A stretch of DNA of 64,000 bases, taken from the NCBI RefSeq assembly GCF_051903065.1, contig NZ_CP178438.1. One strand, written 5' to 3'. Of the stretch, positions 99 through 64,000 are shown piece by piece (the stretch's first letter is position 1; every line of letters begins with the position of its first letter). The notes under the pieces are model-generated. The model saw only the letters and a list, made by a program, of their open reading frames with translations. It was not told the origin of the DNA and did not search any database. The position numbers and the translations under genes are program-made. This DNA is from Escherichia coli. GTDB taxonomy: Bacteria > Pseudomonadota > Gammaproteobacteria > Enterobacterales > Enterobacteriaceae.

Positions 99-122
99 GT
101 TCGAGTCCGGCCTTCGGCACCA
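99..122 (+). repeat. 24-bp copy of the 3' end of tRNA-Leu (leuX), likely island attachment-site direct repeat
   Basis: Sequence GTTCGAGTCCGGCCTTCGGCACCA matches the T-arm/acceptor 3' end of leuX as I recall it; the upstream bases do not continue into a tRNA body, so this is a partial copy, not a gene. Confidence 0.6.
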
Positions 123-302
123 CATCGTATGCAAATCGAGTCGCTCAAGGGCGGCTTTTTTTGTGTCTGGAATCCGTTAGTTACCTATCTTTCTCGCTAT
201 TTTAACTCTCTCAGAGCCAGCCAATTTCAACCCATCGCAAACGAAAAATGTTGGTACAGGCGTTGGTATTTTCGGTTCGACATTAATTTGTATTAGCTCA
301 GT

Positions 303-332
303 CCTGATCTGACAGCTATCTGCCAGATCAGG
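303..332 (-). terminator. Strong hairpin 15 nt downstream of hsdR stop (13-bp stem, one mismatch, 4-nt loop); possible terminator or RNA-stability element
   Basis: Inverted repeat CCTGATCTGACAG / CTGCCAGATCAGG read directly; no clear U-tract follows on the minus strand, so the terminator role is uncertain. Confidence 0.35.
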
Positions 333-346
333 TTCGGATTAATACA

Positions 347-3300
347 TTATATCTGCCCGCCTACACCTTTAAACTTCTCAATAAACGCGACGATCTTCTG
401 GAAAACCGTCTGTTTTTTCGTCTTATATTGCGGATTTAACGGACTGAGTTTTGGCAATGTCTCGTTTAATTCCGTGCCATTTTCGGTTGCGTATTCGCGT
501 TTTAAAGACGTGCGAATATAGCGTTTCGCCGCCTCTTCATTGAGATTTTCTTCTTTGATCAATGCTGCTGCTTCACGTTGCTGTTCGCGTTGAGCAAAGG
601 TAAAAAACGCGTCAATGATGCTGGCTTTATCCGGCAAATCATCCAGGTTCGTTTGCTGAATAAAATCGACCACCAATCCTTCTTTGGCACGGTTCCCAAG
701 GCTTGAACGAATTAAGCGTTTGACCTCTTCGGTCATTTCGCCCTTACCTTTGTTTTGTCTGTTGTGTTCGAAAATCAGTCCAAGGATATAATCCAGGTTT
801 ATTTCCTGAGACTTCAGCAAATCGACCTCAAAAACCACGTCATCCCAGTCGGTGGTTGATTTTTCTTTTTTGTCAGCTTCTTTCTCACGGCGCTGCCAGT
901 CACGAATATCGTTATAGGCTGAACGGTAATCCTGAATCTTGCGATCAGCAGGGAGACGAATCGTTTGTAATTCAGCGAACTTTTCATCATCCACATAATG
1001 TTCTGCTTTGAATTTTTCTACCGCAACAGGATCGCTAAGATCGATTTGTTGCAGGGCTTTCAGCATGGCAAATTCATCATAGTTTTGCAGGATGTTCTCG
1101 GCACGCAGGTATTCACCAAACAGTTTTACGAAGTCTTTCTTCTCTTTTTCACTTTCAATATTGGCAGGGTCAGGGAACCGTTGTTCCAGTTCTGAAACTA
1201 CTGCCATAAAGCCGCGTTTAGCTTCACCAGTGGCAGCATCAGTAAAGCCTTCCATATACTCTGCATAACTCTTTTCTAACACCACATTTTTGGTATTTTT
1301 ATCACCAAACAGCGTTATGGCATCAATGGTTGAGCGTTCCAGATCCCGGAAAGTGACGATGTTACCGAAGGTTTTAGTGGCGTTATAAATGCGGTTGGTG
1401 CGGGAAAATGCCTGCATCAGGCCGTGAAAACGCAAGTTTTTATCGACGAATAGCGTGTTCAATGTTGGAGCATCGAAGCCGGTTAAAAACATCCCCACGA
1501 CAATTAACAGATCGATATCTTGATTTTTAACCCGTTGGGCTAAATCACGATAGTAGTTCTGAAAACCGTTACTGTCGGTGCTGAAGTTAGTTTTAAAATA
1601 GCTGTTATACTCACGAATTGCAGCGTCAAGAAACTCTTTAGCACTGCTGTCCATTGCGCTGGTATCAAAAGTTTCATCGGAAATTTCACCAATGGCATTT
1701 TGCTCTTCATTGGCGGCAAAGGAGAAGATTGTCGCAACACGCAGCGGTTTATAAGTAGCCGATTTATTAGCTGCTTCCTCTTGTAACCGTTTAAACGTAG
1801 CGTAATAGGCTTTCGCGGCATCCACGCTACTCACTGCCAGCATGGCATTAAAGCCTTTGGAACTTGGGAAAGTACGGTGGGTCTTCTGGCGGAAGTTATT
1901 CAGAATATATTGCGTAATTTCCTGTATACGCATGGGATGAAGAAACGCCTGCTGATTTTCAGCCGCACTCAGTTTTTTCTCGTCGGTTTCTGTCTCTAAA
2001 GACTTAAACTGTGGCCGCACATCGTTGTAGTCCACCTTGAATTTGAGCACTTTTTCATCACGAATCGCATCGGTAATCACATATGAATGCAATTCACGAC
2101 CAAATACGCTGGCGGTCGTTTCTGAGCCTAAAGCGTTTTCCGGGAAAATAGGGGTACCGGTAAAACCAAACTGATAATAGCGTTTGAATTTCTTCTTCAG
2201 ATTTTTCTGCGCTTCTCCAAACTGGCTGCGGTGACATTCATCAAATATAAACACCACTTGCTGATTGTATACAGGCAGGTCGCTTTCTGCTTTCATCAGG
2301 TTATTAAGTTTCTGAATAGTGGTGACGATAATTTTGTTATCGTCCTTATCCAGATTTCGTTTAAGACCTGCTGTATTTTCCGAGCCGTTAACACTATCTG
2401 GCGAAAAACGCTGATATTCCTTCATGGTCTGGTAATCGAGGTCTTTCCTGTCGACCACAAAGAAGACTTTATCAATAAAGTCCAGTTCTGTTGCCAGACG
2501 TGCGGCTTTAAAGCTGGTCAGGGTTTTACCAGAACCGGTTGTGTGCCAGATAAAGCCACCGCTTTCGGGGGTAGACCAGTTTTTCGCTTTATAGGAGCTG
2601 TTGATTTTCCATAAGATACGCTCAGTGGCGGCAATCTGGTACGGTCGCATCACTAGTAGCGTTTGGCTAATATCGAACACGCTGTAGTTCACTAAGACAT
2701 TAAGCAGAGTATGTTTCTGGAAAAAGGTAGCGGTAAAGTCTTTGAGGTCTTTAATCAGCGTGTTGTCTGATTTCGCCCAATTCATGGTGAAATCAAAACT
2801 GTTTTTATCGCGCTTTGTGGTGTTGGCAAAATAACGGGTATCGGTGCCGTTAGAAATGACAAACAGTTGCAGATACTTAAACAGGGAATTTTCGCTGTTA
2901 AAACTCTCTTTACTGTAACGATGTATTTGGTTGAAAGCCTCACGAATCGCCACGCCGCGCTTTTTCAGTTCGATTTGTACCAGTGGTAAGCCATTAACCA
3001 GGATCGTGACGTCATAACGGTTAGCATGAGAACCCGCCTGTTCAAACTGCTGGATAATCTGCACCTTATTGCGCATGAGATTCTTTTTATCTATCAGATA
3101 GATATTTTCAAGACGCCCGTCATCAAAAATAAAGTCGCAGATATAGTCGATATGAATTTTACGGGTTTTATCCAGGATGCCATCGCTGGGGTTGTCCAGA
3201 TACTGCTCCGTGAAACGCCGCCACTCGCTGTCATTAAACACCACACCATTGAGGTTCTGAAGCTGTTCCCGAACATTGGACAGCATCGCCGACTGTGATT

Positions 3301-3463
3301 TTACCGAAATAAATTCATAGCCCTGATTCCGCAGGTCCTGAATCAGTTCCCGTTCCAGGTCCGATTCGCTCTGGTAGCTGTCGCCTGTTTGCTCAGCTTT
3401 GATGTACTTATCAAGGACGATAAAGTTATTGGATTCAGCAATGGTGTGTGTTTGATGAGTCAT
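347..3463 (-). CDS. hsdR: Type I restriction enzyme R subunit (HsdR), type IC / EcoR124I-like, 1038 aa
   Basis: ORF-track protein starts [14 protein letters not shown] and has the same length (1038 aa) as EcoR124I HsdR as I recall it; DEAD-box helicase motifs (TGSGKT, DECH) present. Confidence 0.9.
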
Positions 3464-3491
3464 AGCGCATCCTTTGTGCCGCCTGGCAAGG

Positions 3492-3521
3492 GCCGGAAGG
3501 GCGTTAAGAGTGACTTCCGGC
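3492..3521. promoter_or_regulatory. Perfect 8-bp inverted repeat (GCCGGAAG..14 nt..CTTCCGGC) in the hsdS-hsdR intergenic region; candidate regulatory element near the expected hsdR promoter
   Basis: Read directly from sequence. Type IC systems are described as having a separate promoter for hsdR; no T-tract, so not an obvious intrinsic terminator. Confidence 0.3.
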
Positions 3522-3584
3522 GCGTAAAAAATAGTCTATATACAGACCGGGTGTTAAGGTGGCCCGGTCGGTAGCAATGGTCAA

Positions 3585-4865
3585 TTAGTTACTGATAGTT
3601 TCAGGTTTGGGAAAACTGAACAGTAAATCACGATAGTACTCGTATTGTTTCTGGCGCAACTCGATTTCACGCGGGAGGCCTTCGGTGATGGAGTTTGTCA
3701 GAGTGTCGAATTTATCGAGTATTGCGACGATACGAGCTTGTTCCTTAAGTGATTTTTCGTGATCTTTAGGATATGGAACCGGAATCATAATTTTTGAAAA
3801 ACCATTAATGAGTAGTGTATTAACTTTTGTTCTGGCTACATACTTTGCTTTTTCAGAAATAAACGAATCGGTTTGCATGTAATAGGAAATAAATTTTGGA
3901 TTCAAAGAATGTCGAAAAGCATAACAGTGATCATGAATAGCGATATCGTCATCCCCAAGCCATGCCACTGCTTTACCAACGTCTTCTACAGTCTCCCCCA
4001 CGTCAGTTATCACGACATCTCCATGTTTGGCATAGCGTAATGACGCTGCCATATCAGCTCTAACCTGTGATAACGAATGAGTTGTGTAAACACCATATCG
4101 TGTATATATCTCACCATAATGGATTACACTGATACCACCATCTTCTACATAATCTGCTTTAGTAAAACGTTTTCCACGAATAAACTCACCAATTTCCCCC
4201 AAAGTCTTCCACTCAACCTCACCCTCTTTAAAACTCAACAACTGGTCGCGATAGTAGTTGTACTGTTTTTTACGCATGGTAAGCTCTGCTGTAAGCTCTG
4301 CTGTAAGCTCAGTAAATTTATCCAGAATCCGAACGATTTCAGACTGGATGGCAAGGGATTTTTCCGGATTGCCCGGGCAGGGGATGGGGATGAGTAGTTT
4401 TGACATCAATGCATTTGAGCTTAGATTCGGCTGTGCTCCGCCCCCTGCAAGGATATAAATAGTCTCTGTATTTAACAATAAAAAATGGTATAAATAATTA
4501 TTGTTTAGAATATTTTCTTTGGGTATAAATTTCCCAACACGTTGGTTAAGATAACATTTTATTCCTTTTTTATAAATTCCCACTTTTCCTGTAGTGGCAC
4601 CTGACATTGCAATCAATATATTTCCCATAGATACCTCAAAGGAGGATAAATCTTCCTTGTAATCATTTAGTGAAAAGTATTTCACCTCATCTAAGTCAAC
4701 ATTAAACCCATCTATATTTGTGATTCTAACTATCGGTAACCCAGTTTCTTTAAATAAGCTGCTTTTAAATGCAAATCCATTTTTAAAATCACAAACATCC
4801 TTCAGGGTTTTCCACTCAACCTCAACCCCATCCAGCAATTTTTCCAGATAACTCAACTCGCTCAT
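3585..4865 (-). CDS. hsdS: Type I R-M specificity subunit (HsdS), type IC, 426 aa, with central TAEL repeat
   Basis: Conserved type IC central and C-terminal regions ([49 protein letters not shown]); start ATG overlaps the hsdM stop (ATGA), indicating translational coupling. Confidence 0.9.
4279..4311 (-). repeat. 12-bp tandem repeat in hsdS encoding (TAEL)2 plus a partial copy; spacer-length determinant of type IC HsdS
   Basis: Plus strand GTAAGCTCTGCT x2 then GTAAGCTCA; the minus strand reads ACT GAG CTT ACA GCA GAG CTT ACA GCA GAG CTT, i.e. [11 protein letters not shown]. Confidence 0.85.
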
Positions 4866-6416
4866 TTCTGCACCCCGCAGCCTTCAATTTCAGCCACAAT
4901 CGCATCAATATCTTTGCGCAACTGGTCGATTTTGCTGACCGTGGTTTTCAGCTCAGCATTCAGCTCACCGATATCGATAATTTCGCGAGTATCTTTCGCT
5001 TCAACATAGCTGCTCACCGACAGGTTATAGTCATTCGCTACAACGGCTTCAAACGCGACAGATTTCGCCAGATGAGCAACATCTTCCTTGCTGGCAAATA
5101 CCTGCATAATCTGTTCGATATGGGCATCGGTCAGGATATTGTTGTTGGTCTCTTTTTTGAACAGTTCGCTGGCGTCAATAAACTGAACTTTGGTATCGGT
5201 TTTATGTTTAGACAGCACCAGAATATTGACGGCAATAGTGGTGCCAAAGAACAGGTTCGGTGCCAGTGAAATCACGGTTTCGACATAGTTATTATCGACC
5301 AGATACTGACGGATTTTCTGCTCCGCGCCGCCACGGTAAAAAATACCCGGGAAGCAAACAATCGCAGCGCGACCTTTGGCCGAAAGATAGTTCAGCGCAT
5401 GTAGTACAAAGGCGAAGTCAGCTTTGGATTTGGGGGCCAGGACGCCAGCCGGGGCAAAACGTTCATCGTTAATCAGCGTCGGGTCATCGCTGCCAATCCA
5501 TTTCACCGAATACGGCGGGTTAGAAACGATGGCATCAAACGGTTTTTCATCTCTGAAGTGCGGCTCAGTCAGTGTATTGCCCAACTTGATATCAAACTTG
5601 TCGTAGTTGATGTTGTGCAAAAACATGTTCATACGCGCCAGGTTATAGGTCGTATGGTTGATCTCCTGACCAAAAAAGCCTTCTTCGATGATATGGTCAT
5701 CAAACTGCTTTTTCGCCTGCAACAACAGCGAACCGGAACCTGCGGCCGGGTCGTAGATTTTGTTAACGTGGGTCTGCCCGTGCATAGCCAGTTGTGCAAT
5801 CAGCTTAGAGACGTGCTGCGGTGTAAAGAACTCGCCGCCTGACTTACCAGCATTCGCGGCATAGTTAGAAATCAGGAACTCATAGGCATCGCCGAACAGG
5901 TCAATCTGATGTTCGTTAAAGTCGCCAAGCTTTAACCCTTCAACCCCTTTCAGAACCGCAGCCAGGCGGGCATTTTTATCCTTAACGGTGTTACCCAGGC
6001 GGTTACTGGTGGTATCGAAATCAGCAAACAAACCTTTGATGTCAGCTTCTGAAGGGTAACCGTAAGCAGAACTTTCGATAGCAACGAAGATGCTGTTTAA
6101 ATCTGCATTCAGTCTGTCATTGGTATTTGCTTTCGCAGCTACGTTGCAGAAAAGCTGACTTGGGTAGATGAAGTAGCCTTTGGTTTTGATGGCATCGTCT
6201 TTAATGTCATCAGTTATTACGCTGTCATCCAGTTTCGCATAACAGATACTGTCATCACCGGCTTCAATATAGCTGGAAAAATTTTCGCTGATAAAACGGT
6301 AGAAAAGCGCGCCCAGAACGTATTGCTTAAAGTCCCATCCATCGACCGAACCTCTGACATCGTTAGCAATTTGCCAGATCTGGCGATGAAGCTCCGCGCT
6401 GCTGAAGACTGGTCAT
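4862..6416 (-). pseudogene. hsdM: Type IC R-M methyltransferase subunit (HsdM) with an N-terminal frameshift (apparent 2-bp deletion in a CGCGCG run at about codon 8)
   Basis: ATG at 6416 with an AAGGA ribosome-binding site reads [17 protein letters not shown] then stop. The frame encoding the conserved body ([16 protein letters not shown]...) has an in-frame TGA at 6413-6415 and no ATG/GTG/TTG start until the TTG at 6031, which is why the ORF track shows only 389 aa. Confidence 0.7.
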
Positions 6417-6722
6417 TTTTTATCCTTTGAATGTGTTTTTAACGTCGGCTTTTGCCGGGATTTTACCGGAAGTTGTTTGGTTTTTCAGATTTGTATGACG
6501 GTGAGGAGGGGATTCAGTACCAGATTGTTAGTGCATCTTACTCAGCATTCACCGCTTGAGTCAGGAGGCTACTTTATATGCCCATCGCCCATCCGTAGGT
6601 GATCAGATAATTTATTGCGAGTCACCTTCCCGATTTTCAATCTCATTATTTACCCAATCTTTCACCAGTGGATAATTCGTCTGCTACTAACGGCGAGTGT
6701 ATTTTTTTACGGATGAAAGATT

Positions 6723-7556
6723 ATGCAAACAGAAGCTGAAGTCTTAACCGATCATAACGAACTAATTTGCTCGACCAGTATTGAGCGTATCGTCACAGGA
6801 CGTGATAGTGCACTGAACCAGATAGCGGCGTTAATCCAAAAGCTTGATGATATCTCCAGCCTGACATCCAGTATTGGCGGTGATGTGGCTGGAACCTGGG
6901 CAATGCGTAATGGATATGCCTTTGATTGCTGGCTGATGCAGCCAACCGACAAAGCGATGCCGGTGATCACCCGAAATATCGATCGCAGTATCTGGCGCGA
7001 TCTCATGCTGAAGTCCGGTATGTTGACTCTGATGGATGCCGAAGCTCGCAGTCAGTGGGCAAAGAATCTGGAGGAGGGCGATCTCCCGGCGATTAGCGAA
7101 GCCAACATCCTGAGTACCTTTGAACAACTTCACCACAATAAGCAGGATGTTTTCGAACGTGGGATTATCAATGTATTTAAGGGATTGAGCTGGGATTACA
7201 AAACCAATAATCCCTGTTATTTCGGTAAGAAGATTATCGTTAACAATCTGGTGAAGCATGACCGATGGGGCTACAGCCTGCACTGGGGCTGGCGGCGAGA
7301 TCAGCTTGCCGATCTGGAACGGATGTTCTATCTGCTGGATGGGAAGGTCATTCCCGATAACCGGCATGATGTTGCGATTCGGTTTATGGACTTCGTTAGT
7401 GCTCACCCGCATGAGCAGGTATTTAATGACGATTTATTTGTCATCCGCTATTACCAGAAAGGCAGTGGGCATATCACATTCAAGCGACTGGATCTGGTGG
7501 ATAAGATGAATGACATTGTGGCGAAGCACTATCCGTCAGCGTTATCAGCAAAATGA
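6723..7556 (+). CDS. Hypothetical protein, 277 aa, no catalytic motif recognised; divergently oriented from the hsd operon, upstream of the McrBC-like pair
   Basis: Clean ORF with ATG start and an AT-rich upstream region; I could not assign a family by eye. Confidence 0.6.
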   Translation: MQTEAEVLTDHNELICSTSIERIVTGRDSALNQIAALIQKLDDISSLTSSIGGDVAGTWAMRNGYAFDCWLMQPTDKAMPVITRNIDRSIWRDLMLKSGMLTLMDAEARSQWAKNLEEGDLPAISEANILSTFEQLHHNKQDVFERGIINVFKGLSWDYKTNNPCYFGKKIIVNNLVKHDRWGYSLHWGWRRDQLADLERMFYLLDGKVIPDNRHDVAIRFMDFVSAHPHEQVFNDDLFVIRYYQKGSGHITFKRLDLVDKMNDIVAKHYPSALSAK

Positions 7557-7914
7557 ATGTCGTATGTTTGCTGTCAATAATGTCGTTACTGGAACCCTCT
7601 GAATTTCGGCATATCCATTTACTGGAAACGATGTTTACCTAAAAACAGTTGATTCCCTATGCAACTAGAAACCTCACACAGGTTGAAAAACGAGTAGCGA
7701 TTTTACGTATGAAAGAATGCTATAGCCTTCTCTGAGAGCCATCAACATCATGCGTTTTGCAGTTAAGTCATCAGATAAATGTGGTGGCTCCAGGGCAGAA
7801 GGTAATTTCAGGATGAAAGTTATTTTTTTTATCACAAAATTTAACATTTTTGAGATTAATCCGATAAGATAAGGCTATCCCAATTTCCCTCCCCCCTACA
7901 TATTGGATTAAGAG

Positions 7915-9969
7915 ATGGTTCAGGATTCATCAGCATTAGCCCCCTTCTTTCGTGCTCAAATTGAAAAAAATAATCAATACAATTCAGTTTGGGGCAAACA
8001 CTACCGCCAGCTTGTAGAACAGATTCAGGCCGAAAAACCAAACTTTTCTGAAGCCACGATTCGGCAGGTATGGTATGAACGTGACAATGGTGTCTCCAGC
8101 CTGATGCAAGGAGGGATGTCATTGGTTGAATTTGAAAATGCACAAAAAGACCTTCTAACGCTCACCCGTCAGATAGCAGAAGAGTGTACACAAGAAAATT
8201 ATAATCGGGTCATTGAACGCCTTATCAAACTTAAAGCGGACGGAGTATTAAATAAGGTATATAGGGCTCTTTGTAATCGTGCTTTTGCAGCAATATACCC
8301 ATCAAAAATTAGCAGTGTCGTGAATGTTAATAATTTTTTTAGTTGCTACAATTATTGCAACAACCATTTCCAGCTAGGTCTTTCCGGAGAACGGGAGTGG
8401 CTGGCTCGCAATGTTGATCTTAAAGAAACGCTAAATCGTGCGCTGGGTGATGATATCGACCCTATTGAGCTGAATATGTCACTTTGGCATCTCTATGCGT
8501 ATGAAATTCAGGATAAAAATGCTATCGGTTTAGTTGGAAGCGAAAGTGCTTTACAAGAAAATGAGCAAGAAGATGATGTTATAAGTTCGCCATTGCCTAA
8601 AAACACAATTCTCTATGGCCCGCCAGGTACAGGTAAAACATATCGTACTATTGAGCTTGCTGTACAAATTTGTGATCCGATCGCTTACTCCCTGCAGGAG
8701 GGTAAGGATGAGAGTGAAAAACGTCGCGAGTTGAAAAAGATTTATGATCAGCTTATCAAAGAAAATCGAGTGCGTTTTATCACCTTTCATCAGAGCTTTG
8801 GTTATGAAGAGTTTATTGAAGGTTTAAGAGCTGAGACTACTGATGACGGTAATGTAAAATACGAAATAAAGGCAGGTATTTTTAAGCAGATATGCGAGGA
8901 TGCCGCCTTTGGTCATGCTGGTGCGCAGGAAATGTTAGATAGCGCACTTACTCGCCTACAAGAACGTTTATCTGAAGGTGAAAATATCACGCTGGAAACA
9001 CAACAGGGTAAGGCCTTCCAGCTGACGTATAAAAGTCAAACCAACTTTGGAATTTTCCCGTCACAATCGAAAAAAGAGGATTTAGGACAGGGTTACAATG
9101 CCTATTTGAAGGATATTCGGCAAGTTTATCAGGATCCACGAGCAAAAGTACATAATCCATCTTATGTACGCAGTATCCTTAACTATTTAATTAATCAACG
9201 TTATCTGCCTCTGAATACTCAGAGCGTAGCTTCAGAAAAAAAGGAAAACTATGTTCTCATTATTGATGAAATAAATCGGGGTAATATTTCAAAAATTTTC
9301 GGTGAACTAATTACCCTTATTGAGCCATCTAAACGGGCTGGTGAGCCAGAATCGCTTAGCGTATTGCTGCCATACTCTTCCACTCCATTTAGTGTGCCGA
9401 ATAACCTTTATTTAATTGGTACCATGAACACTGCTGATCATTCGCTTACTGCACTTGATACTGCACTACGTCGCAGATTTGATTTTGAAGCGATGCTGCC
9501 AGATATTACTGTTCTGAAAGATACTGTCATTAAAGGTATTGATCTGCCTCGTCTATTGCAGACGCTTAACGATCGCATCCAGGTTTTATACGATAGAGAA
9601 CATATGCTGGGGCATGCTTTTTTTATCCCTGTTGTGCAGGCAAAAGAAGACGAAGCTCTGGCATTTGAAAGATTCAAACGGATTATGCGAAATAAGATAC
9701 TACCATTGCTGGAAGAATATTTTTACAATGACTGGCAAAAAATTCGCATGGTACTGGCTGATAACCAAAAAGAGGAAGCACCAGATCTTCAATTTGTACG
9801 TGAGGTGAAATACCAGAAAAAGTATGCCGATCTCTTTGGTGATAACGGAACAGATGACTTGGGAACCAGTTTTCACCTGGCAGCAGAGGATGACAACGTT
9901 TGGGACAATCCAATCGCCTGGCAGCAAATTTATGCACCTCAAAAAGAAAAACGCAGGAGTGCGGAATGA
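7915..9969 (+). CDS. McrB-family AAA+ GTPase (type IV restriction-like), 684 aa, with a non-canonical N-terminal domain of about 230 aa
   Basis: Motifs ILYGPPGTGKTY, FHQSFGYEEFIEG, IIDEINRGNISKIFGEL and GTMNTADHSLTALDTALRRRF parallel the EcoKI McrB GTPase motifs; residues 1-230 do not resemble the EcoKI McrB N-terminal 5mC reader as I recall it. Confidence 0.8.
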   Translation: MVQDSSALAPFFRAQIEKNNQYNSVWGKHYRQLVEQIQAEKPNFSEATIRQVWYERDNGVSSLMQGGMSLVEFENAQKDLLTLTRQIAEECTQENYNRVIERLIKLKADGVLNKVYRALCNRAFAAIYPSKISSVVNVNNFFSCYNYCNNHFQLGLSGEREWLARNVDLKETLNRALGDDIDPIELNMSLWHLYAYEIQDKNAIGLVGSESALQENEQEDDVISSPLPKNTILYGPPGTGKTYRTIELAVQICDPIAYSLQEGKDESEKRRELKKIYDQLIKENRVRFITFHQSFGYEEFIEGLRAETTDDGNVKYEIKAGIFKQICEDAAFGHAGAQEMLDSALTRLQERLSEGENITLETQQGKAFQLTYKSQTNFGIFPSQSKKEDLGQGYNAYLKDIRQVYQDPRAKVHNPSYVRSILNYLINQRYLPLNTQSVASEKKENYVLIIDEINRGNISKIFGELITLIEPSKRAGEPESLSVLLPYSSTPFSVPNNLYLIGTMNTADHSLTALDTALRRRFDFEAMLPDITVLKDTVIKGIDLPRLLQTLNDRIQVLYDREHMLGHAFFIPVVQAKEDEALAFERFKRIMRNKILPLLEEYFYNDWQKIRMVLADNQKEEAPDLQFVREVKYQKKYADLFGDNGTDDLGTSFHLAAEDDNVWDNPIAWQQIYAPQKEKRRSAE

Positions 9970-11276
9970 AATCTTCCAGTCATTTCACTGTGTTCGAATA
10001 CGGGCATTTAGTGAGTGAGGAAGGTGATGCCCGTATAAATAATGCGGTAGTGCTACCTGCAGACCTATTTAAATGGCTTGAGCTGCGCTGTCTGAAAGAC
10101 GATGCTGATAATACTCATCGTTTGCTCACCCTTAGCAGCCGGAATGGAGTAAAAACGCTGCAGGTAAAAAACTATGCAGGAGTAATCTCACTGCCAGGGG
10201 GGCGATTTCTCGAAATCCTGCCTAAAACAGGTCAGGATAATGAGGATACTGTTCGTCAACAAATACTGATGATGTTACGTACGTTAAAATCATTTCGTCA
10301 TATTGCCTCCTCTGAATCTGGCGTCAAAATATCTAAAATGCCTCTGATGGACATCTTTATTCAACAATTTATAGAGAGCGTGCGTAAGATTGTGCAGAGA
10401 GGGTTAAAACGTGACTATTTACGTCAGGAAGATAATCTTCCATGGATAAAAGGAAGATTACGGATCTCTGCACAATTAAGCAAAAACTGTATTAGGCGGG
10501 ATCTTTTTCAGGTGGAGTATGACGAGTACAGCGTCAATCGTCTGGAAAACCGGATACTCAAAACTGCAATCAATAAGATTAGTCGCCAGACCAGTAATCC
10601 ACAATTATTACAGCAGATAACACAGCTGCAGTTTCACTTTGAAAATATCACGTCAGTTCATGATGCTTATATAGCTTTCGAGCAGTTACACTTTGATAGA
10701 CACATGCATCACTATGAGCAAGCATTAGCGTGGGCGAAGATGATTTTATTGGGCGATTCTCCACACTGTATGTATGGGGATGTTAATGCTTTTTCACTGC
10801 TTTTCCCGATGGAGGCTGTTTTTGAATCTTTTGTGACGACATGGATGCGTTATCGTTATTATGATAAATGGCGAGTGGACGCACAGGTAAGTTCAAAAAA
10901 TCTGATTAGTTATAACGGTAAAGCTTTATTTAAGCTGCGGCCTGATATTTGTTTACGGCCTCGTAAAAGTACTACTGGTTCAGTTATTACCTGTGATATT
11001 AAATGGAAGATAGTAAATGGCAGAAAGGACAGTCTTGAACAATCTCAAGCCGATCTCTACCAAATGCTTGCCTATGGATTGAATTACCAGGAGGGGGAAG
11101 GTGATATGATTTTGATATACCCCTATCATAACGGATTTAATCAGCCATCTCCTCATCCTTATGAATTTAGCCATCAGAAGGAAAATAGGTTACGTTTATG
11201 GGTTGTACCTTTCTTTATTGGCGAGAGTTTACAGACATCAGAGTTGCATTTTCCTAGTGGGGCTGAATTTATTTAG
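9966..11276 (+). CDS. McrC-like PD-(D/E)xK nuclease partner, about 436 aa, translationally coupled to the McrB-like gene
   Basis: ATG overlaps the McrB-like stop (ATGA at 9966-9969); C-terminal PDICLRP...ITCDIKWK fits a PD..D-x-K nuclease motif. The ORF-track start at 9900 lies inside the upstream gene and is probably too far 5'. Confidence 0.75.
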   Translation: MKSSSHFTVFEYGHLVSEEGDARINNAVVLPADLFKWLELRCLKDDADNTHRLLTLSSRNGVKTLQVKNYAGVISLPGGRFLEILPKTGQDNEDTVRQQILMMLRTLKSFRHIASSESGVKISKMPLMDIFIQQFIESVRKIVQRGLKRDYLRQEDNLPWIKGRLRISAQLSKNCIRRDLFQVEYDEYSVNRLENRILKTAINKISRQTSNPQLLQQITQLQFHFENITSVHDAYIAFEQLHFDRHMHHYEQALAWAKMILLGDSPHCMYGDVNAFSLLFPMEAVFESFVTTWMRYRYYDKWRVDAQVSSKNLISYNGKALFKLRPDICLRPRKSTTGSVITCDIKWKIVNGRKDSLEQSQADLYQMLAYGLNYQEGEGDMILIYPYHNGFNQPSPHPYEFSHQKENRLRLWVVPFFIGESLQTSELHFPSGAEFI

Positions 11277-11338
11277 TATTTGTAGGCTATCTCTTTATAC
11301 AATTTATTTGTCTATTTGTATGCACAAGATAGCCTACC

Positions 11339-12211
11339 TCACCCCCTAAAAACCTCTTTCCGATGCCACTCCACAAACCCCTCAAAAGGGTAATTTTTAC
11401 GCACCTGTGGCAACGCAATAGTTTTCCCGTCAAAATCCCAGAATAATCTCTCAACGATCCCTCCGCCGTTTACCGCATCCGAGACCAGTATCCGCATATT
11501 TTCATCCAGGCCAATCGATCCTTTATCAAAGGCTTTATGGTGTATTGCGCAAAGTGCCAGACCATTGGGGATTTCACAAGGGCCGCCGTGCTGTTTCCAT
11601 TTTATATGCGCCGCTTCCAGCGCGACGGTGGTGTCGTCGTGGCGCATATTAAAGCCACATATCGCGCACTGGTATTTATAAGCGCGTAATACATTTTTGC
11701 GAAATAACGGGTCGCGCTGTTTACGGATTTGCTGGAGATCAAAACCCAGCTCGTCAGCAATTTCTTCCTGAATACTCTCGGTGAAGTGCGCTTCGAGTAT
11801 CTGTTGCGCCAGAGTATTGATGAGTTTTTTATTGCCGGTTACCAGGGCGTAGTGCTGTTCATCGAAACCGCCTGCAACGTGGTATTCGTTCAGTTCCTTC
11901 ACTGGCGGTTGTCGGCTGCTCCCTGCTGTTGAGCAACGCTCGGCATTGTGTAATTGCCAGAATCCGTCGCCTTGTAATCGCCAGAACGGCATATCAGGTC
12001 GGTACTGTGAACGCTGTGGCCCAAAACGTTCCAGTAAACTGTGCAGAGGTTCGTAGATTTCCGAGCCATAATCGAAAAGGCGCGGATGTCCATGCAGGTA
12101 TCCCGCTAATACGTATAGCAATAACAATGGCTTATGCGGCGCGCGCTGTTCACCCTTATGCCAGATTTTTATATTGGCAATTGCCTGCTGTAGCGATTTA
12201 CTGGAAGCCAT
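11339..12211 (-). CDS. HNH-family nuclease (C-terminal CAICG...HIKW...CAIHH motif) with an uncharacterised N-terminal domain; candidate modification-dependent restriction enzyme
   Basis: Cys/His HNH motifs in the C-terminal third; start chosen at ATG 12211 (AGGGA ribosome-binding site, protein begins MASSKSL); the ORF track extends to a TTG at 12268. Confidence 0.65.
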   Translation of the reverse strand: MASSKSLQQAIANIKIWHKGEQRAPHKPLLLLYVLAGYLHGHPRLFDYGSEIYEPLHSLLERFGPQRSQYRPDMPFWRLQGDGFWQLHNAERCSTAGSSRQPPVKELNEYHVAGGFDEQHYALVTGNKKLINTLAQQILEAHFTESIQEEIADELGFDLQQIRKQRDPLFRKNVLRAYKYQCAICGFNMRHDDTTVALEAAHIKWKQHGGPCEIPNGLALCAIHHKAFDKGSIGLDENMRILVSDAVNGGGIVERLFWDFDGKTIALPQVRKNYPFEGFVEWHRKEVFRG

Positions 12212-12347
12212 TGATATCCCTGGCAGTGAAATAATTGCGATCATGCTCGCAAATTTTCTGCTGTTCAAGCCTGCAAGTGAAGATATATTACTTTGATCTC
12301 ATTTGTTTTTTTGCTGCTTGTTCTGAGAACGTATAAGGACATTCTCT

Positions 12348-12998
12348 ATGAATAAACTCCCCGATCATCTTCCGCGGCGGTATATTATCGAAGCTATTCA
12401 TTTATGGGATGCGGGAGAAACTCATCAGTTCCAGCCTGCACGGTTGTATGAGATTGAATATCATGGCCGACGTTACCCCTCGAAGGCGATTGCTGGCATC
12501 GCAGCGACATTGATGACGGGGACGCAATTTACCCCTGCGGATTTCACCGGCGGAATAAAATCTAAATGCGTCAAGCTACTTATAGATCAGGGATTTCATA
12601 TTCATCAGGATAAAGCCGCTGCGGCTCCCATAGCCGATGTTCTGTTCCCGGATGAGTTGCCGTCGCAGGGGACCTACGTTGAAGGTGCGGCGATAAAGGT
12701 GACGGTAAACAGCTATGAACGCGATAAAAACGCTCGCGAGAAAGCAGTCGAATATCACGGATGCCAGTGCAACGTATGCGGCGTTGATCTGGTGAAGATC
12801 TATGGCGATATCGCTGAGGGCTTTATCCATATGCATCACCTGGTGCCGCTTTCAGCCATTAAAGAGGATTACCTGCTGGATCCAGTTAATGATTTACTTC
12901 CTGTGTGCCCTAATTGCCATGCGATGTTGCACCGACGCAAACCACCGTTTACGCCGGAGGAGTTAAAAGCGTTGATGGATGCGAATAAATCAAATTAA
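12348..12998 (+). CDS. HNH nuclease, 216 aa (C-terminal CQCNVCG...HMHHLVP...CPNCH, McrA-like HNH) with a distinct N-terminal domain
   Basis: HNH zinc-finger-type motif resembling the E. coli McrA C-terminus as recalled; transcribed divergently from the neighbouring HNH gene. Confidence 0.7.
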   Translation: MNKLPDHLPRRYIIEAIHLWDAGETHQFQPARLYEIEYHGRRYPSKAIAGIAATLMTGTQFTPADFTGGIKSKCVKLLIDQGFHIHQDKAAAAPIADVLFPDELPSQGTYVEGAAIKVTVNSYERDKNAREKAVEYHGCQCNVCGVDLVKIYGDIAEGFIHMHHLVPLSAIKEDYLLDPVNDLLPVCPNCHAMLHRRKPPFTPEELKALMDANKSN

Positions 12999-59063: not shown

Positions 59064-62000
59064 TTAATTTAAAGCACTCATATGGTGTTCTTTAAAATTC
59101 TCTGCCTGTGCCAGCACACCCATATAAACATCATCATTCGCTACTGGCGGGAACTTATGCTTGTGTAGAAGCAGAATAAGTTCAACTTTCAGTTTCGCTT
59201 TAATATCATCGCGTTTACTCCAGTCAGGATATTTCGATGTGTTGTCAACCACGCTTTTCATCTCTTTTGCCAGTGACAGCATTTTTTCATCGTCATAGGT
59301 GAACTGATATTTATCGCGCATATGAGCAAGAATGTCGAAAAACGCTTTTTCTTCAATATCAATACCTAAATCGGCCCAGGTGCCCATTTCGGTTTTAATA
59401 TCATAGATAATATCGGTCATTTCCTGACTGAATGTATCGAATTCTTCACCGTTGAGTACATCATCTTCTCGCCGCTCATTATAACGATCTATAATCGCCT
59501 GGAAGCGGCGGGTGAAGTTAATCCCTTGCAACTGGTTCACTTTCTTGAAGTCGCTGATCGCTTTTTCCAGTAATTTTTGTAATAACTGGATCTTCGTTGC
59601 CGGAAGTTTGATCTTGTTAATTCGCGCCAGATAATCTTCGTCAAAAATATCGATGGATTCCGCTTTTTTATCGCCAAGAAAATAAATTTCTTCTACGCCA
59701 TCAGCTTTTAGCGCTTCTGCAATCATTTCACGAACGCGTGCATTCATCTGGGTGACATCCGGTGCGTCACCTTTCGTCAGTTTGAAAACAATTGAACGAA
59801 CAGCAAGATAATAGTGAATATAGTCACGTTCTGTCTGTGATAATGCTTCGCTGCCGCAGCAGACGTCGTAGGCGGCTTTCATGCGTTTAACCAGTCCCAT
59901 AAACCGACGTTCAACTTTCTGGGTACGCAGAACGAATTCCGCCGCGCGGTTGAGGCAGGATAATTGCGCTTGTGGCTCACCACTAAAATAATCCCGACTG
60001 TCAAATTCGTAAAAGACTTGCCCCAACAAATCGAGATGGTTTTTAACTTCTATTACCGATTGCTGAATATCTTCAAAGTTGGTGGCATCAATGCGGGAAT
60101 ACATTGCCAGTGCCTGGTTCATCTGACTTTTAATGCCGATGTAGTCCACCACTAACCCTTTGCTTTTGCCTTCCAGTTTACGGTTAACGCGAGAAATAGT
60201 CTGGATAAGGTTATGTTTTTGTAAGGGCTTATCAATATAGATGGTATCCAGTTCCGGGACGTCGAAACCGGTCAGCCACATGTCAACAACAATGGCAATT
60301 TTGAAATTCGATTTAGCGTTTTTGAACTGCTTATCCAGCTCTTTGCGATATTCTTTTGTGCCCAGTAAATCATAAAGCGCCTCGTCGTCATCTTTACCGC
60401 GCGTCATGACCATCTTCACCATTTCTGAAGGCGGTAACTCTTTCTGCTCCTGCTCCGTCAGGACGACGCCATCAGGTGCTTGCTTCACTTCAAACCAGGC
60501 AGGGCGAATAGCTTTAAGCTGGCGGTAGAAATCCCAGGCAATTTCACGGCTGGCGCAAACAAACATGGCTTTGCCTTTTACGGTGGAACCTTCGGCTACG
60601 CGTTTTTCATAATGTTTAGCAAAATCTTCCGCGAGGGCTTTTAACCGGTCTTCATCACCCAGAACCGCATTCATGGTTGCGGTGGCTTTTTTGCTTTCGT
60701 CGATTTGCCACTCATTGGTGCCTGCGTTTGCGCACTCTTCGTAATACTTTTCGACTTCTTCCAGTTTGCTGGAGTCCAGGATCACTTTAGCCGCACGGCC
60801 TTCGTACACGATGCGCACAGTGATTTCATCCTGAACGGATTCGGTCATGGTGTAACTGTCGATCACCTCACCGAAGACATCGAGCGTCGCGTCAATCGGT
60901 GTGCCGGTAAAGCCAACATAGGTGGCGTTTGGCAGTGAATCGTGCAGGTATTTCGCAAAGCCATAAGTTTTGCGCACTTTTCCGCTTTCTTTATCGACGA
61001 TGACTTTCTGGTCGAGGTTAACCTGGCTGCGATGTGCTTCGTCCGAGATGCAAATGATATTGCTGCGTTCAGAAAGGAGTTCGGTGTCTTCGGTGAATTT
61101 ATGGATCGTTGTCAGGAATACACCGCCACTATTGCGTCCCGCCAGTTGATTACGCAAATCTTCACGGCTGGTAACAGGAACGATGGTGTCGTCGCCAATG
61201 TAATTTTTGGCGTTGCACATTTGCGCAGAAAGCTGATCGTCCAGATCGGTGCGGTCGGTGATCAAAACAATGGTCGGGCTGGCAAACTCCACGCTCTTCA
61301 TCAAAAGACGCGTTAAAAATTGCATGGTGTAACTTTTGCCACAGCCCGTTGCGCCAAAGTAGGTGCCGCCTTTACCGCTACCGAAAGGTTTACGCGCTTG
61401 CTTGATGCTGTAATAGAGTTTGCGGGCGGCATAGTACTGCGGATATCGGCAGCAAATTTTTACTTCGTGCTTGGCTTTATCCGGGAAGCAGATAAAGTTT
61501 TTAATCACATCCAGCAGACGTACCGGATGAAACAACCCCTGAATCATCGAGTGCAATGATGGAATTCCGTCCTGTTCACGGTTTTCATTGCCGGTGACTT
61601 TGCGCCATGAGTAAAAGTATTCATAGGGCGCAAACAGGTTGCCCATCCGGTTATTTACGCCATCGCTAATAATGCAGAGCGCGTTGTAGATAAACAGTTG
61701 CGGAATATCCCGGCGATAGCGTTTACAGAGCTGCTTCCAGGCATCGCCAATACTGGCTTCCTGCTCGCGCACCGCACTTTTAAATTCAAAGACGACCAGT
61801 GGCAGACCGTTGATATAGAGAATGCCGTCAGGAATACGAGTCTGATTATCTTTGCCGGAGATTTTAAGCTGGTTAACAATCTTAATCCGGTTAAGCGGCG
61901 GATTAATATAGAAAGGCGGGAGTTCCGCCGCCTGTTGCAACGGGACATCTTCGGCGTCAAATATCTGGCGCAGTGCGGCAGGTAGATGCCGGGTGTCGAG

Positions 62001-62339
62001 CAATTCAATATAGAGATCTTTTTGTTGCCGATCGTCGCGTTTGAACAGAAAACCATTTGCCAGCCAGCGACAAAATGTTTTGTTGCTTTCATAAAGGTCG
62101 GAGGCCGGAAGCGTGGTGAACTGTTTGATCAGTCGCTGAATCTCTTCTTCAGTAATGCCATCAGGCTGGTAGCGTGCCGCTAAATAATGACGGAGATCGT
62201 CTTCGATAATGACCTGATCGAGACTCGAACGTGGGACATTATCGCCGATCAGGTGTTGATATCCCTGATCCTGTAGCAGTTCAATGATCGCTTGTTCTAA
62301 TTTTGCTTCACTGAAAGAGAGACTCATATCGCGCTCCAA
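59064..62339 (-). CDS. hsdR: Type I restriction enzyme R subunit (HsdR), non-EcoKI allele, about 1090 aa
   Basis: Superfamily 2 helicase motifs (GATGCGKS, DEAH-like) and the overall type I HsdR architecture; N-terminus differs from K-12 EcoKI HsdR; start may instead be the ATG 12 nt downstream. Confidence 0.85.
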   Translation of the reverse strand: MERDMSLSFSEAKLEQAIIELLQDQGYQHLIGDNVPRSSLDQVIIEDDLRHYLAARYQPDGITEEEIQRLIKQFTTLPASDLYESNKTFCRWLANGFLFKRDDRQQKDLYIELLDTRHLPAALRQIFDAEDVPLQQAAELPPFYINPPLNRIKIVNQLKISGKDNQTRIPDGILYINGLPLVVFEFKSAVREQEASIGDAWKQLCKRYRRDIPQLFIYNALCIISDGVNNRMGNLFAPYEYFYSWRKVTGNENREQDGIPSLHSMIQGLFHPVRLLDVIKNFICFPDKAKHEVKICCRYPQYYAARKLYYSIKQARKPFGSGKGGTYFGATGCGKSYTMQFLTRLLMKSVEFASPTIVLITDRTDLDDQLSAQMCNAKNYIGDDTIVPVTSREDLRNQLAGRNSGGVFLTTIHKFTEDTELLSERSNIICISDEAHRSQVNLDQKVIVDKESGKVRKTYGFAKYLHDSLPNATYVGFTGTPIDATLDVFGEVIDSYTMTESVQDEITVRIVYEGRAAKVILDSSKLEEVEKYYEECANAGTNEWQIDESKKATATMNAVLGDEDRLKALAEDFAKHYEKRVAEGSTVKGKAMFVCASREIAWDFYRQLKAIRPAWFEVKQAPDGVVLTEQEQKELPPSEMVKMVMTRGKDDDEALYDLLGTKEYRKELDKQFKNAKSNFKIAIVVDMWLTGFDVPELDTIYIDKPLQKHNLIQTISRVNRKLEGKSKGLVVDYIGIKSQMNQALAMYSRIDATNFEDIQQSVIEVKNHLDLLGQVFYEFDSRDYFSGEPQAQLSCLNRAAEFVLRTQKVERRFMGLVKRMKAAYDVCCGSEALSQTERDYIHYYLAVRSIVFKLTKGDAPDVTQMNARVREMIAEALKADGVEEIYFLGDKKAESIDIFDEDYLARINKIKLPATKIQLLQKLLEKAISDFKKVNQLQGINFTRRFQAIIDRYNERREDDVLNGEEFDTFSQEMTDIIYDIKTEMGTWADLGIDIEEKAFFDILAHMRDKYQFTYDDEKMLSLAKEMKSVVDNTSKYPDWSKRDDIKAKLKVELILLLHKHKFPPVANDDVYMGVLAQAENFKEHHMSALN

Positions 62340-62421: not shown

Positions 62422-63771
62422 TTATGCAGCTTCTGTATCGGTAGTGAGATCCGGAAGATCTTCCAGGGATAGCTCACCGGAGATGAGTTTCGGGAGCAGG
62501 GTGTCGCGGAGTTTTAATAATATTCTATTATTTTCATTATTTCTTGATATTGCTAATGAAATATTTGAACATATAGAATCAAATTTTCGTTCAACTTCAC
62601 CATTTTCAGAGTGAGATATAACGTGGCTTAGTATTTTACTGGGTGATGTGTGTTTCACAGTTGTGCCAGTAACACTACCTAAAACAGTATTTCTATAGTT
62701 TTGAGATATTAATACTTGGTATATAAATTCTTTTACGGAAGAGGGATGTTTTCCGAGAATGACTCGACCTAAACGTTGATTGTGGAGAAATTGAGTGTCT
62801 TCACGAGAAGGGACTCTAGCGGCATAACCTAAAGAATCACATTCTTTACTTAGATCTGTCATGGATACAAATATGTCATCTACTCCAAAAATATAATCCT
62901 TTGGGATTTCACCTTTATAATATTTGAGTTTGTCAAATTTAAATCCACCTCCGATTCTCACATTTCCTGGCGTCAACAATATCTGATTTGTTTTTGTTTC
63001 TGAAAAATATTCTCCTTTAAAAGCAAAGCCATGCTTAATATCAATTAATTTGCTTAAACCAGAATATATCCATTTAGCAGGTAAGTATCCTACTTCTGTT
63101 TCTTCAAATTCACTTGGGAAAAGCGAGCGGATTTCCGCCGGAAGTGGTTTAAAATCTGCACTATTACGTACTTTTTGACGCAATTCGGTGCGAGTTTGCA
63201 GGGCTTCCGGGATTGGATTTCCTGCATCCAGAGCGTTATCAATCACCGGATCAAAATCCACAAACCAGGATTTGAACAGGGTTTGGGACATTTGTTCCAA
63301 GGTTTGGTTCATGGATGAAAGTGTTGTGATTTTGTCATCAAAAGCTTTGAGACTCTTGACTATTAAATCTTGAACATTTAGCGAAGGAGCAGATATTTCT
63401 ACATTCGCTAGATCATTGATGGTTATTTGGCTTTGAGCAGAACCGCTATCAAGATATCGTAAATTACTCTGTAGAAACAGATAATAAAAATATTCTTTTC
63501 TTACTTTTGTTTCATCCAAATTTATTTTAATGGACAAATTTGTTAAATAACAATCTCTAGTCGTTATTTTAACATCGCCAGTTCCACCAACACCTCGGGC
63601 AACAACAATTAACTCACCTGCCGAAGTATTTTTTTCAGGGTAGCTTTCTGTGTATTTATATCCTGAAAAAATGACATAGTCACCTGTACCAACAAACTCC
63701 TTTTTAGGCATTTTTCCGTATGAAAATTCAGCTATATCACCTAAGCGATATATACACCACTTATTCCCCAT
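62422..63771 (-). CDS. hsdS: Type I R-M specificity subunit (HsdS), about 449 aa
   Basis: Two AT-rich target-recognition domains separated by conserved helices; ATG (MGNKW...) overlaps the upstream hsdM stop by 11 nt. Confidence 0.85.
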   Translation of the reverse strand: MGNKWCIYRLGDIAEFSYGKMPKKEFVGTGDYVIFSGYKYTESYPEKNTSAGELIVVARGVGGTGDVKITTRDCYLTNLSIKINLDETKVRKEYFYYLFLQSNLRYLDSGSAQSQITINDLANVEISAPSLNVQDLIVKSLKAFDDKITTLSSMNQTLEQMSQTLFKSWFVDFDPVIDNALDAGNPIPEALQTRTELRQKVRNSADFKPLPAEIRSLFPSEFEETEVGYLPAKWIYSGLSKLIDIKHGFAFKGEYFSETKTNQILLTPGNVRIGGGFKFDKLKYYKGEIPKDYIFGVDDIFVSMTDLSKECDSLGYAARVPSREDTQFLHNQRLGRVILGKHPSSVKEFIYQVLISQNYRNTVLGSVTGTTVKHTSPSKILSHVISHSENGEVERKFDSICSNISLAISRNNENNRILLKLRDTLLPKLISGELSLEDLPDLTTDTEAA

Positions 63772-64000
63772 AACCCAGCGCCTCCAAATTCTTGCGAATC
63801 GCACGATCCAGTTCTTCCGCCTGCTTCATCTGCTCAAACAACGTCTTCGACAATTCGCGCATTTTCGTCTCAAATGCCACGCCGTCTTCTTCCTGCTCGG
63901 CTGCACCCACATAGCGGCCCGGTGTCAGTACGTAGTCGTTATCTTTAATATCTTGCAGGGTTGCAACTTTGCAGAAGCCTGCCTGGTCTTCATATTTTTC
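63761..64000 (-). CDS. hsdM: Type I R-M methyltransferase (HsdM), 3' end only; the gene runs off the window edge
   Basis: The minus-strand frame reads ...GFCKVATLQDIKDNDYVLTPGRYVGAAEQEEDGVAFETKMRELSKTLFEQMKQAEELDRAIRKNLEALGYGE then stop, a typical HsdM C-terminus. Confidence 0.8.
   Translation of the reverse strand, partial: EKYEDQAGFCKVATLQDIKDNDYVLTPGRYVGAAEQEEDGVAFETKMRELSKTLFEQMKQAEELDRAIRKNLEALGYGE

Follow-up and report, generated by a model that had tools for sequence, protein, structure and literature searches.

Sequence identity together with subunit complementation delimits restriction-modification families such as type IC, within which subunits are interchangeable, and the mechanism by which TAEL (Thr-Ala-Glu-Leu) repeats in the specificity subunit HsdS set the spacer of the recognition site has been textbook knowledge since 1989. 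EcoR124I (GAA-N6-RTCG) has two copies of a 12-bp unit and EcoR124II (GAA-N7-RTCG) has three, as do EcoDXXI and EcoprrI, whose spacers are N7 (PMC3874165). A dependence of spacer length on unit number has been demonstrated for EcoR124I/II and for hybrid enzymes (PMC3874165; PMC10644984). Specificity changes by unequal crossing-over at the repeat, with each unit shifting the two target-recognition domains (TRDs) by ~0.34 nm and 36 degrees (PMC3874165). Deletion of one TAEL converts EcoR124II into EcoR124I and changes the set of T5-like phages that are restricted (PMC10644984). Here we describe a related hsdS gene in a 64,000-nucleotide stretch of Escherichia coli DNA (contig NZ_CP178438.1, assembly GCF_051903065.1; hereafter the window). 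A preliminary description of this DNA had invoked both the link between TAEL copy number and spacer length in EcoR124I/II and the change of specificity by unequal crossing-over, and the studies cited above bear out each of these statements. Our analysis indicates that the repeat in this gene is very probably the (TAEL)n spacer-length module of an EcoR124-family HsdS, in a system that is most likely inactive here.

Over its full length, the window’s HsdS aligns to the EcoR124 S subunit (7bst_A, E=1e-73): the N-terminal, central, and C-terminal conserved regions are almost identical, the two TRDs are unrelated, and the repeat segment has the same length. The Protein Data Bank entry 7bst is labeled ‘EcoR124II’, yet its two TAEL units correspond to EcoR124I by the literature. 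The protein follows the layout of a short N-terminal conserved region, TRD1, a central region with tetra-amino-acid repeats, TRD2, and a C-terminal region, and carries a precomputed Pfam PF01420 annotation. Of the partner subunits, HsdR matches EcoR124 HsdR (2w00_A) with 2253 bits over all 1038 aa, and a protein identical to it has a precomputed Pfam EcoR124_C match; the hsdM reading frame matches EcoR124 HsdM (7bst_D) with 1132 bits over 511 aa. The genes follow the order hsdM-hsdS, joined by an ATGA overlap at 4862-4865, and then hsdR ~120 nt further on (Table 1). Given HsdR and HsdM subunits near-identical to those of EcoR124, we assign the locus to the type IC (EcoR124-family) restriction-modification systems, as the preliminary description had done for hsdS. 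One of the three subunits is not intact, since hsdM carries a 2-bp deletion that places a stop at codon 18. The exact 426-aa HsdS is already present in NCBI, on at least 14 contigs.

A perfect 12-bp tandem repeat encoding TAEL units lies in the central conserved helix of HsdS, where the corresponding 11-residue codon stretch spans 4281-4313. On the coding strand the array reads GAGCTT-ACAGCAGAGCTT-ACAGCAGAGCTT-AC, flanked by act on the 5' side and c atg on the 3' side, and thus comprises, in order, 6 bp of an incomplete unit, two full units, and 2 bp of another. Tandem Repeats Finder reports a period of 12 and 2.7 copies with 100% matches and no indels, in agreement with the two full units and partial third that had been placed at 4279-4311. 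With up to three mismatches allowed, the window still holds a single occurrence of the 24-mer ACAGCAGAGCTTACAGCAGAGCTT, which represents two units, and the 24-mer occurs in 0 of 100 dinucleotide-preserving shuffles. For 20 self-matching bases at a fixed offset, the chance probability is ~4^-20, or ~6e-8 expected occurrences per 64 kb. Moreover, this is the sole perfect short-period array in the window, the remaining arrays lying in a pentapeptide-repeat gene at 47.7-48.4 kb.

The number of units varies naturally among close relatives of the window. Comparison of positions 99-9735 with the chromosome of E. coli 23CRST027 revealed no mismatches and one 12-nt gap: both 23CRST027 and 23CRST031 encode a 430-aa HsdS with three units. 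Database proteins with the same TRDs carry two units (P0001-P0005) or one unit (P0006-P0014), with the window’s exact protein (P0001) found on 14 contigs and the one-unit protein P0006 on 47. Across twelve loci of this lineage plus the window, compared over up to 7.2 kb from the DUF4942 gene to hsdR, we observed only zero to one singleton single-nucleotide polymorphism (SNP), and the sole polymorphism beyond these is the presence of one, two, or three units. Unit number therefore differs between otherwise identical hsdS alleles, and the comparison of copy number in related strains that the preliminary description proposed comes out positive. Since one, two, and three units occur on an otherwise invariant haplotype, at least two slip events have taken place on a background with almost no accumulated point substitutions. 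All three states occur where leuX, the tRNA-Leu gene at the edge of the locus, has no island inserted. The repeat lies in the first coiled-coil helix, part of the structure that keeps the TRDs at a distance from each other. Slipped-strand mispairing or unequal crossing-over between perfect units adds or removes four residues, and in characterized relatives this change moves the half-sites one base pair apart or together.

At the same chromosomal site, a sister lineage (HsdS P0002, as in assembly GCA_038017015.1) encodes HsdS with an E15K substitution, two units, and an intact 518-aa HsdM, and differs from the window’s lineage by ~70 SNPs concentrated in DUF4942 and hsdM. In exact protein look-ups made among 15 billion proteins, HsdS of this intact lineage was found only with two units (49 contigs), and forms with zero, one, three, or four units were absent. 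One genome of the sister lineage (L016) has its own 1-nt hsdM deletion (alignment column 2131) and no hsdM gene call.

In the window itself, hsdM is frameshifted near its start. Intact hsdM begins ATG ACC AGT CTT CAG CAG CGC GCG GAG, and the window reads ...CAG CGC G-GAG, with one GC lost from a short GCGCGCG run. The hsdM product is 17 codons followed by a stop, and the rest of hsdM stays open in a single frame that by tblastn is 98% identical to intact plasmid HsdM. In that frame, the earliest canonical start codon is a TTG at 6031, and initiation there would drop 128 residues of the N-terminal domain, so that translation, once stopped, would meet no canonical in-frame restart for 128 codons. 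RefSeq’s Prokaryotic Genome Annotation Pipeline (PGAP) labels the identical hsdM of E. coli 23CRST027 ‘frameshifted’ and a pseudogene. We found the GC lesion in every one-, two-, and three-copy locus with the E15 allele that covers the site (NCBI, Logan, and complete genomes), and not in the three sister-lineage loci compared (L014-L016). Because it recurs in independent short-read and complete assemblies, the lesion is real and not a read error. Methylation and restriction both need HsdM, and the system is therefore most likely restriction- and modification-negative (r-m-) in this strain, as judged from the sequence. Owing to its ATGA overlap with hsdM, hsdS may be translated less as well. 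Since the identical GC deletion is common to one-, two-, and three-copy alleles that are otherwise identical, the lesion most likely predates the copy-number changes, which would then have occurred in an already inactive system as unconstrained slippage. The built-in specificity switch of the preliminary description thus exists in the population, but in this genome it probably does not operate.

The same GC loss is present in a second hsdM haplotype, that of E. coli E21845/O/A (L035 6044-6100). Its hsdM differs from the window’s at 41 of 1955 positions (2%), and its hsdS and upstream genes are different, with AbiEii in place of McrBC; by contrast, the intact hsdM of strain GMF054 equals the window over 161 nt around the site save for the 2-bp gap. 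The loss in E21845 looks like an independent event on these alignments, and the GC loss resembles a recurrent slip in the short GCGCGCG run. We considered the hsdM (GC)3 tract as a frequent phase-variation site and rejected this, as the deletion occurs in 3 of the best 40 of 333 matching genomes. The GC loss recurs, but rarely, and is no high-frequency switch. A phasevarion-type contingency locus would have a long simple-sequence tract that switches often and reversibly in a clonal population; the tracts here are short (2.7 x 12 bp in hsdS; (GC)2-3 in hsdM), and the variation is seen between strains.

Variation in unit number extends well beyond this lineage. Among the 120 closest homologs, 98 have two TAEL units and 16 have one, and three pairs share both TRDs and differ only in unit count (P0027/P0042, P0031/P0046, and P0060/P0115). 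We sampled 60 records spread across the 1362 RefSeq E. coli records that match, and found two units in about half of them and three in roughly a third. In E. coli as a whole, whose genomes hold up to six type IC hsdS copies, arrays ranged from 1 to 5 units; one four-unit and one five-unit array were confirmed by sequence, and one three-unit array was checked likewise. Codons are uniform within an array, being ACAGCAGAGCTT in the window and in locus L020 and ACCGCTGAGCTT in plasmid alleles, and differ between alleles. Because codons are the same within arrays and different between alleles, this pattern is a signature of repeated expansion and contraction.

Several arrays of non-standard length lie in damaged operons. 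In the locus with the five-unit array (L018 3001-3208), hsdM is replaced by IS3, and in that with the four-unit array (L019 3001-3196), hsdS is split by IS3. Among one-copy alleles, P0046 has a disrupted hsdM, P0116 an hsdR cut by IS66, and P0038 truncated hsdM and hsdR genes. The notion that odd copy numbers mark decayed systems fits the first four one-copy alleles together with the four- and five-copy alleles, but it fails for P0042 and P0115, one-copy alleles whose hsdMSR operons are fully intact. Because these two operons are intact, one unit is not confined to decayed systems, and we retain the association of odd copy number with a broken operon as a weak tendency. Insertion-sequence insertions and stop codons in L021 and L023-L025, along with the L016 deletion, show that E. 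coli type IC systems are often inactivated.

We also derived a predicted recognition sequence. As the preliminary description had stated, both TRDs differ from those of EcoR124I in the alignment to the EcoR124 S subunit, which excludes the N-terminal TRD of EcoR124I as a candidate. Its further suggestion that the recognition sequence is probably new stands for the apparently uncharacterized N-terminal half and falls for the C-terminal TRD, which is known: TRD2 is 100% identical to that of the S subunit of pIP1206/Eco067II/EcoST101IX, the pIP1206 protein having three units (RefSeq NC_010558). According to a methylome preprint on sequence type (ST) 101, pIP1206 carries RM.EcoST101IX with 100% nucleotide identity, the S subunit of this enzyme is 99.8% identical to S.Eco067II, and the recognition site is CCAG-N6-RTTG. 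Loss from ST131 of an IncF plasmid bearing a system of this kind abolished CCAG-N6-RTTG methylation (PMC6692316), and the methylome paper on the ST131 strain EC958 describes no type IC system. The motif CCAG-N6-RTTG can be read as CCA + 7 + RTTG, consistent with the three-unit rule.

In EcoR124I/EcoDXXI hybrids, the C-terminal TRD reads the 3' component of the site (PMC3874165). Given this rule and the identity of the C-terminal TRD to that of the CCAG-N6-RTTG enzyme, we predict that the 3' half-site here is RTTG, six base pairs from the core read by the N-terminal TRD. The N6 spacer is inferred from the EcoR124I register with two units, and the predicted site is 5'-(half-site of the N-terminal TRD, probably a trinucleotide ending in methylated A)-N6-RTTG-3'. 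The window’s N-terminal TRD recurs with other C-terminal TRDs in P0018, P0019, and P0021, and also in a Morganella homolog that is 83% identical overall. By name only, and with EcoDXXI and EcoprrI not compared directly, no characterized enzyme appears among the 120 best homologs, all of which share at least one TRD with the window’s protein. On the plasmids, HsdS of pIP1206 (L033 33546-34829; 427 aa, three units) and of p2_0.1 (L002 5001-6272; 423 aa, two units) have identical TRDs and differ by one TAEL unit and one Y/H substitution. This two-unit allele of the p2_0.1 type is common on ST131 plasmids and is predicted, by the same spacer rule, to recognize CCAG-N5-RTTG.

Several points weigh against reading the locus as a spacer-length module in an inactive system with the site predicted above. 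Inactivity is inferred from the DNA letters alone, and a little HsdM may be made by initiation at a non-canonical codon shortly past the lesion (ATC or ATT), or HsdM may be supplied in trans by a co-resident type IC plasmid. The order of lesion first, slips second follows from parsimony. Two slips in the dead lineage vs none in the live one make a suggestive contrast, though a small and statistically weak one that is affected by clonal sampling. For the specificity, the motif of the plasmid enzyme was assigned by elimination and plasmid loss, not by an hsdS knockout, and our half-site assignment assumes that the N-terminal TRD reads the 5' and the C-terminal TRD the 3' component, as in the EcoR124I/EcoDXXI hybrids.

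An alternative is that the switch is live, with a working system in which changes in copy number now alter the restriction and modification specificity of the cell. In its favor, hsdS and hsdR carry no lesion and do not vary within the lineage; subunits of type IC enzymes can replace one another; many E. coli genomes have more than one type IC locus, with up to six places per genome; and plasmid HsdM is 98% identical, making supply in trans conceivable. We nevertheless consider a live switch unlikely: hsdM stops at codon 18, the first canonical start loses the 128 N-terminal residues, PGAP calls the identical gene a pseudogene, no plasmid is known for the strain, and the intact sister lineage lacks copy-number variation in the exact look-ups. 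An idea that we rate as quite unlikely is that the locus serves as a dormant specificity reservoir, with hsdS and hsdR intact, hsdM off, and the TAEL count free to drift. If true, arrival of a type IC plasmid (HsdM 98% identical) or re-gain of GC would switch on a specificity against which the chromosome carries no modification, and the GC loss in E21845/O/A would represent a recurrent off-switch rather than simple decay.

The reverse order of events, in which a slip gave an active system a new specificity, the chromosome, lacking the matching modification, came under attack, and loss of function in hsdM or hsdR was then selected, would account for the several non-standard alleles in broken systems (one-copy P0046, P0116, and P0038, and the four- and five-copy alleles). 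It strikes us as very improbable, since the GC deletion common to one-, two-, and three-copy alleles makes the lesion older than the slips, the one-copy alleles P0042 and P0115 sit in fully intact hsdMSR operons, cells tolerated EcoR124I/II switching in laboratory work, and restriction alleviation occurs in type IC systems (PMC3874165). Finally, although assemblies are known to go wrong at tandem repeats and many of the loci were assembled from short reads, collapse or expansion of the repeat in assembly is scarcely credible as the origin of the copy-number differences, given that the whole array of 20-44 nt is far below read length, that the states recur independently (one copy on 47 contigs, two copies on 14 + 49 contigs, and three copies in two complete genomes), and that the same two-vs-three difference separates the finished plasmids p2_0.1 and pIP1206. 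We therefore retain the reading of a spacer-length module whose unit number varies in a system most likely inactive in this strain.

The hsd locus lies at a chromosomal site next to leuX and a defense cluster (Table 1). Bases 1-98 of the window are foreign island DNA joined to a leuX fragment, which indicates an island integrated at leuX; the fragment marks the chromosomal site beside the hsd locus, and the window has no complete tRNA. None of the 14 related loci examined shares this junction: each has an intact tRNA or else another island, with a primase/D5 gene. The defense cluster beside hsd spans 6723-12998, and its genes are named here as RefSeq names the identical genes of 23CRST027. A copy of IS903B lies at 46338-47395 in the window; in 23CRST027, copies instead lie inside mcrB and after the HNH gene. 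Because the copies sit at different places in near-identical genomes, IS903B has been moving among sister strains. Just beyond the window’s IS903B copy are imperfect tandem repeats at 47719-47955 and 48267-48396 (periods 24/72 and 9/18/45), which coincide with a gene annotated in a near-identical genome as encoding a pentapeptide-repeat protein. Next to symE, close to the window’s end, begins a second, unrelated type I locus, with hsdR at 59064-62339 on the minus strand followed by a 460-aa open reading frame at 62422-63804. This locus is the classical immigration-control region, and the strain thus has another type I system regardless of the state of its type IC system.

Table 1 Features of the hsd locus and its surroundings in the window.
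Feature	Position	Strand	Basis and remarks
tRNA-Leu (leuX) 3' fragment, 23 nt, island attachment repeat	100..122	-	Comparison with related loci
hsdR, 1038 aa, intact, ~120 nt downstream of hsdS	347..3463	-	Open reading frame list; EcoR124 HsdR match; Pfam EcoR124_C
hsdS, type IC specificity subunit, 426 aa, intact open reading frame	3585..4865	-	Open reading frame list; translation; PDB match 7bst_A; exact match to P0001
TRD2, C-terminal target-recognition domain, ~aa 227-374	3744..4187	-	100% identical to pIP1206 HsdS TRD2
Central conserved region, aa 159-226, first coiled-coil helix, holds TAEL repeat	4188..4391	-	Near-identical in EcoR124 and all type IC homologs
Perfect 12-bp tandem repeat	4279..4310	-	2.7 units of ACAGCAGAGCTT on the coding strand; Tandem Repeats Finder, sequence, translation
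TRD1, N-terminal target-recognition domain, ~aa 22-158	4392..4802	-	Alignments; boundaries from conserved-region coordinates
hsdM pseudogene, ATG at 6416, overlaps hsdS by 4 nt (ATGA)	4862..6416	-	tblastn; three-frame translation; RefSeq flag; PDB match
Frameshift site in hsdM	6392..6401	-	Window CAGCGCGGAG vs intact alleles CAGCGCGCGGAG; one GC unit lost, codons 7-8
DUF4942 gene	6723-7556		RefSeq name in 23CRST027
McrB-family AAA protein, mcrB uninterrupted in window	7915-9969		RefSeq name in 23CRST027
McrC-family protein	ending at 11276		RefSeq name in 23CRST027
Phosphorothioate-DNA-binding restriction endonuclease	~11339-12211	-	RefSeq name in 23CRST027
HNH endonuclease	12348-12998		RefSeq name in 23CRST027

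Overall, the window carries an uncharacterized new allele of a well-understood system, whose mechanism is already known and which introduces no new principle. Its value lies in showing the EcoR124-type spacer switch changing in wild E. coli, with three states on an otherwise invariant 7-kb haplotype. The same count polymorphism affects several other TRD pairs, with a range of 1 to 5 across the species. The locus further shows how a neat ‘specificity switch’ may be housed in a system already disabled by a neighboring 2-bp deletion, and the predicted RTTG half-site and spacer provide a testable motif for the intact strains of the sister lineage.

Compared with the type IC prototype EcoR124I/EcoR124II of plasmid R124, the window has near-identical HsdR and HsdM, the same HsdS architecture, and a copy number that varies between otherwise identical alleles. 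As in EcoR124I, the TAEL-coding 12-bp repeat occupies the same position and has the same length (x-x-L plus two TAEL), but the EcoR124I TRDs (GAA / RTCG) are unrelated and its units are written with the codons ACCGCTGAGCTT instead of ACAGCAGAGCTT. Moreover, the R124 system is plasmid-borne, whereas that of the window is chromosomal beside leuX and has a frameshifted hsdM; one-copy relatives of the window’s allele occur naturally, and the literature examined holds no natural one-copy R124 variant. The Eco067II/EcoST101IX systems of IncF plasmids (pIP1206, pMS6192A-NDM, and the ST131 plasmid pU12A-A) share the conserved regions and a C-terminal TRD that is 100% identical, and their TRD pair also exists in three-unit (pIP1206) and two-unit (p2_0.1 and many ST131 plasmids) forms. 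They differ in their N-terminal TRD, and hence in the 5' half-site, and in having an intact plasmid hsdM with a demonstrably active methylase.

In a different genus, the type IC system NgoAV of Neisseria gonorrhoeae offers a parallel in which LEAT repeats vary among isolates and the spacer changes between N6 and N7 (PMC6789123); unlike the window’s system, it has another repeat sequence, and its specificity is also set by a homopolymer frameshift that truncates HsdS. The chromosomal type IC system of enteropathogenic E. coli E2348/69 has the same hsdM-hsdS-hsdR operon, with an hsdM 5' region 97.5% identical to that of the window, and its HsdR and HsdM are 97% and 98% identical to those of EcoR124I (PMC2518929). 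In contrast to the window’s system, that of E2348/69 is intact, uses another HsdS (408 aa), and is active, cutting transformation by up to 10^4-fold (PMC2518929).

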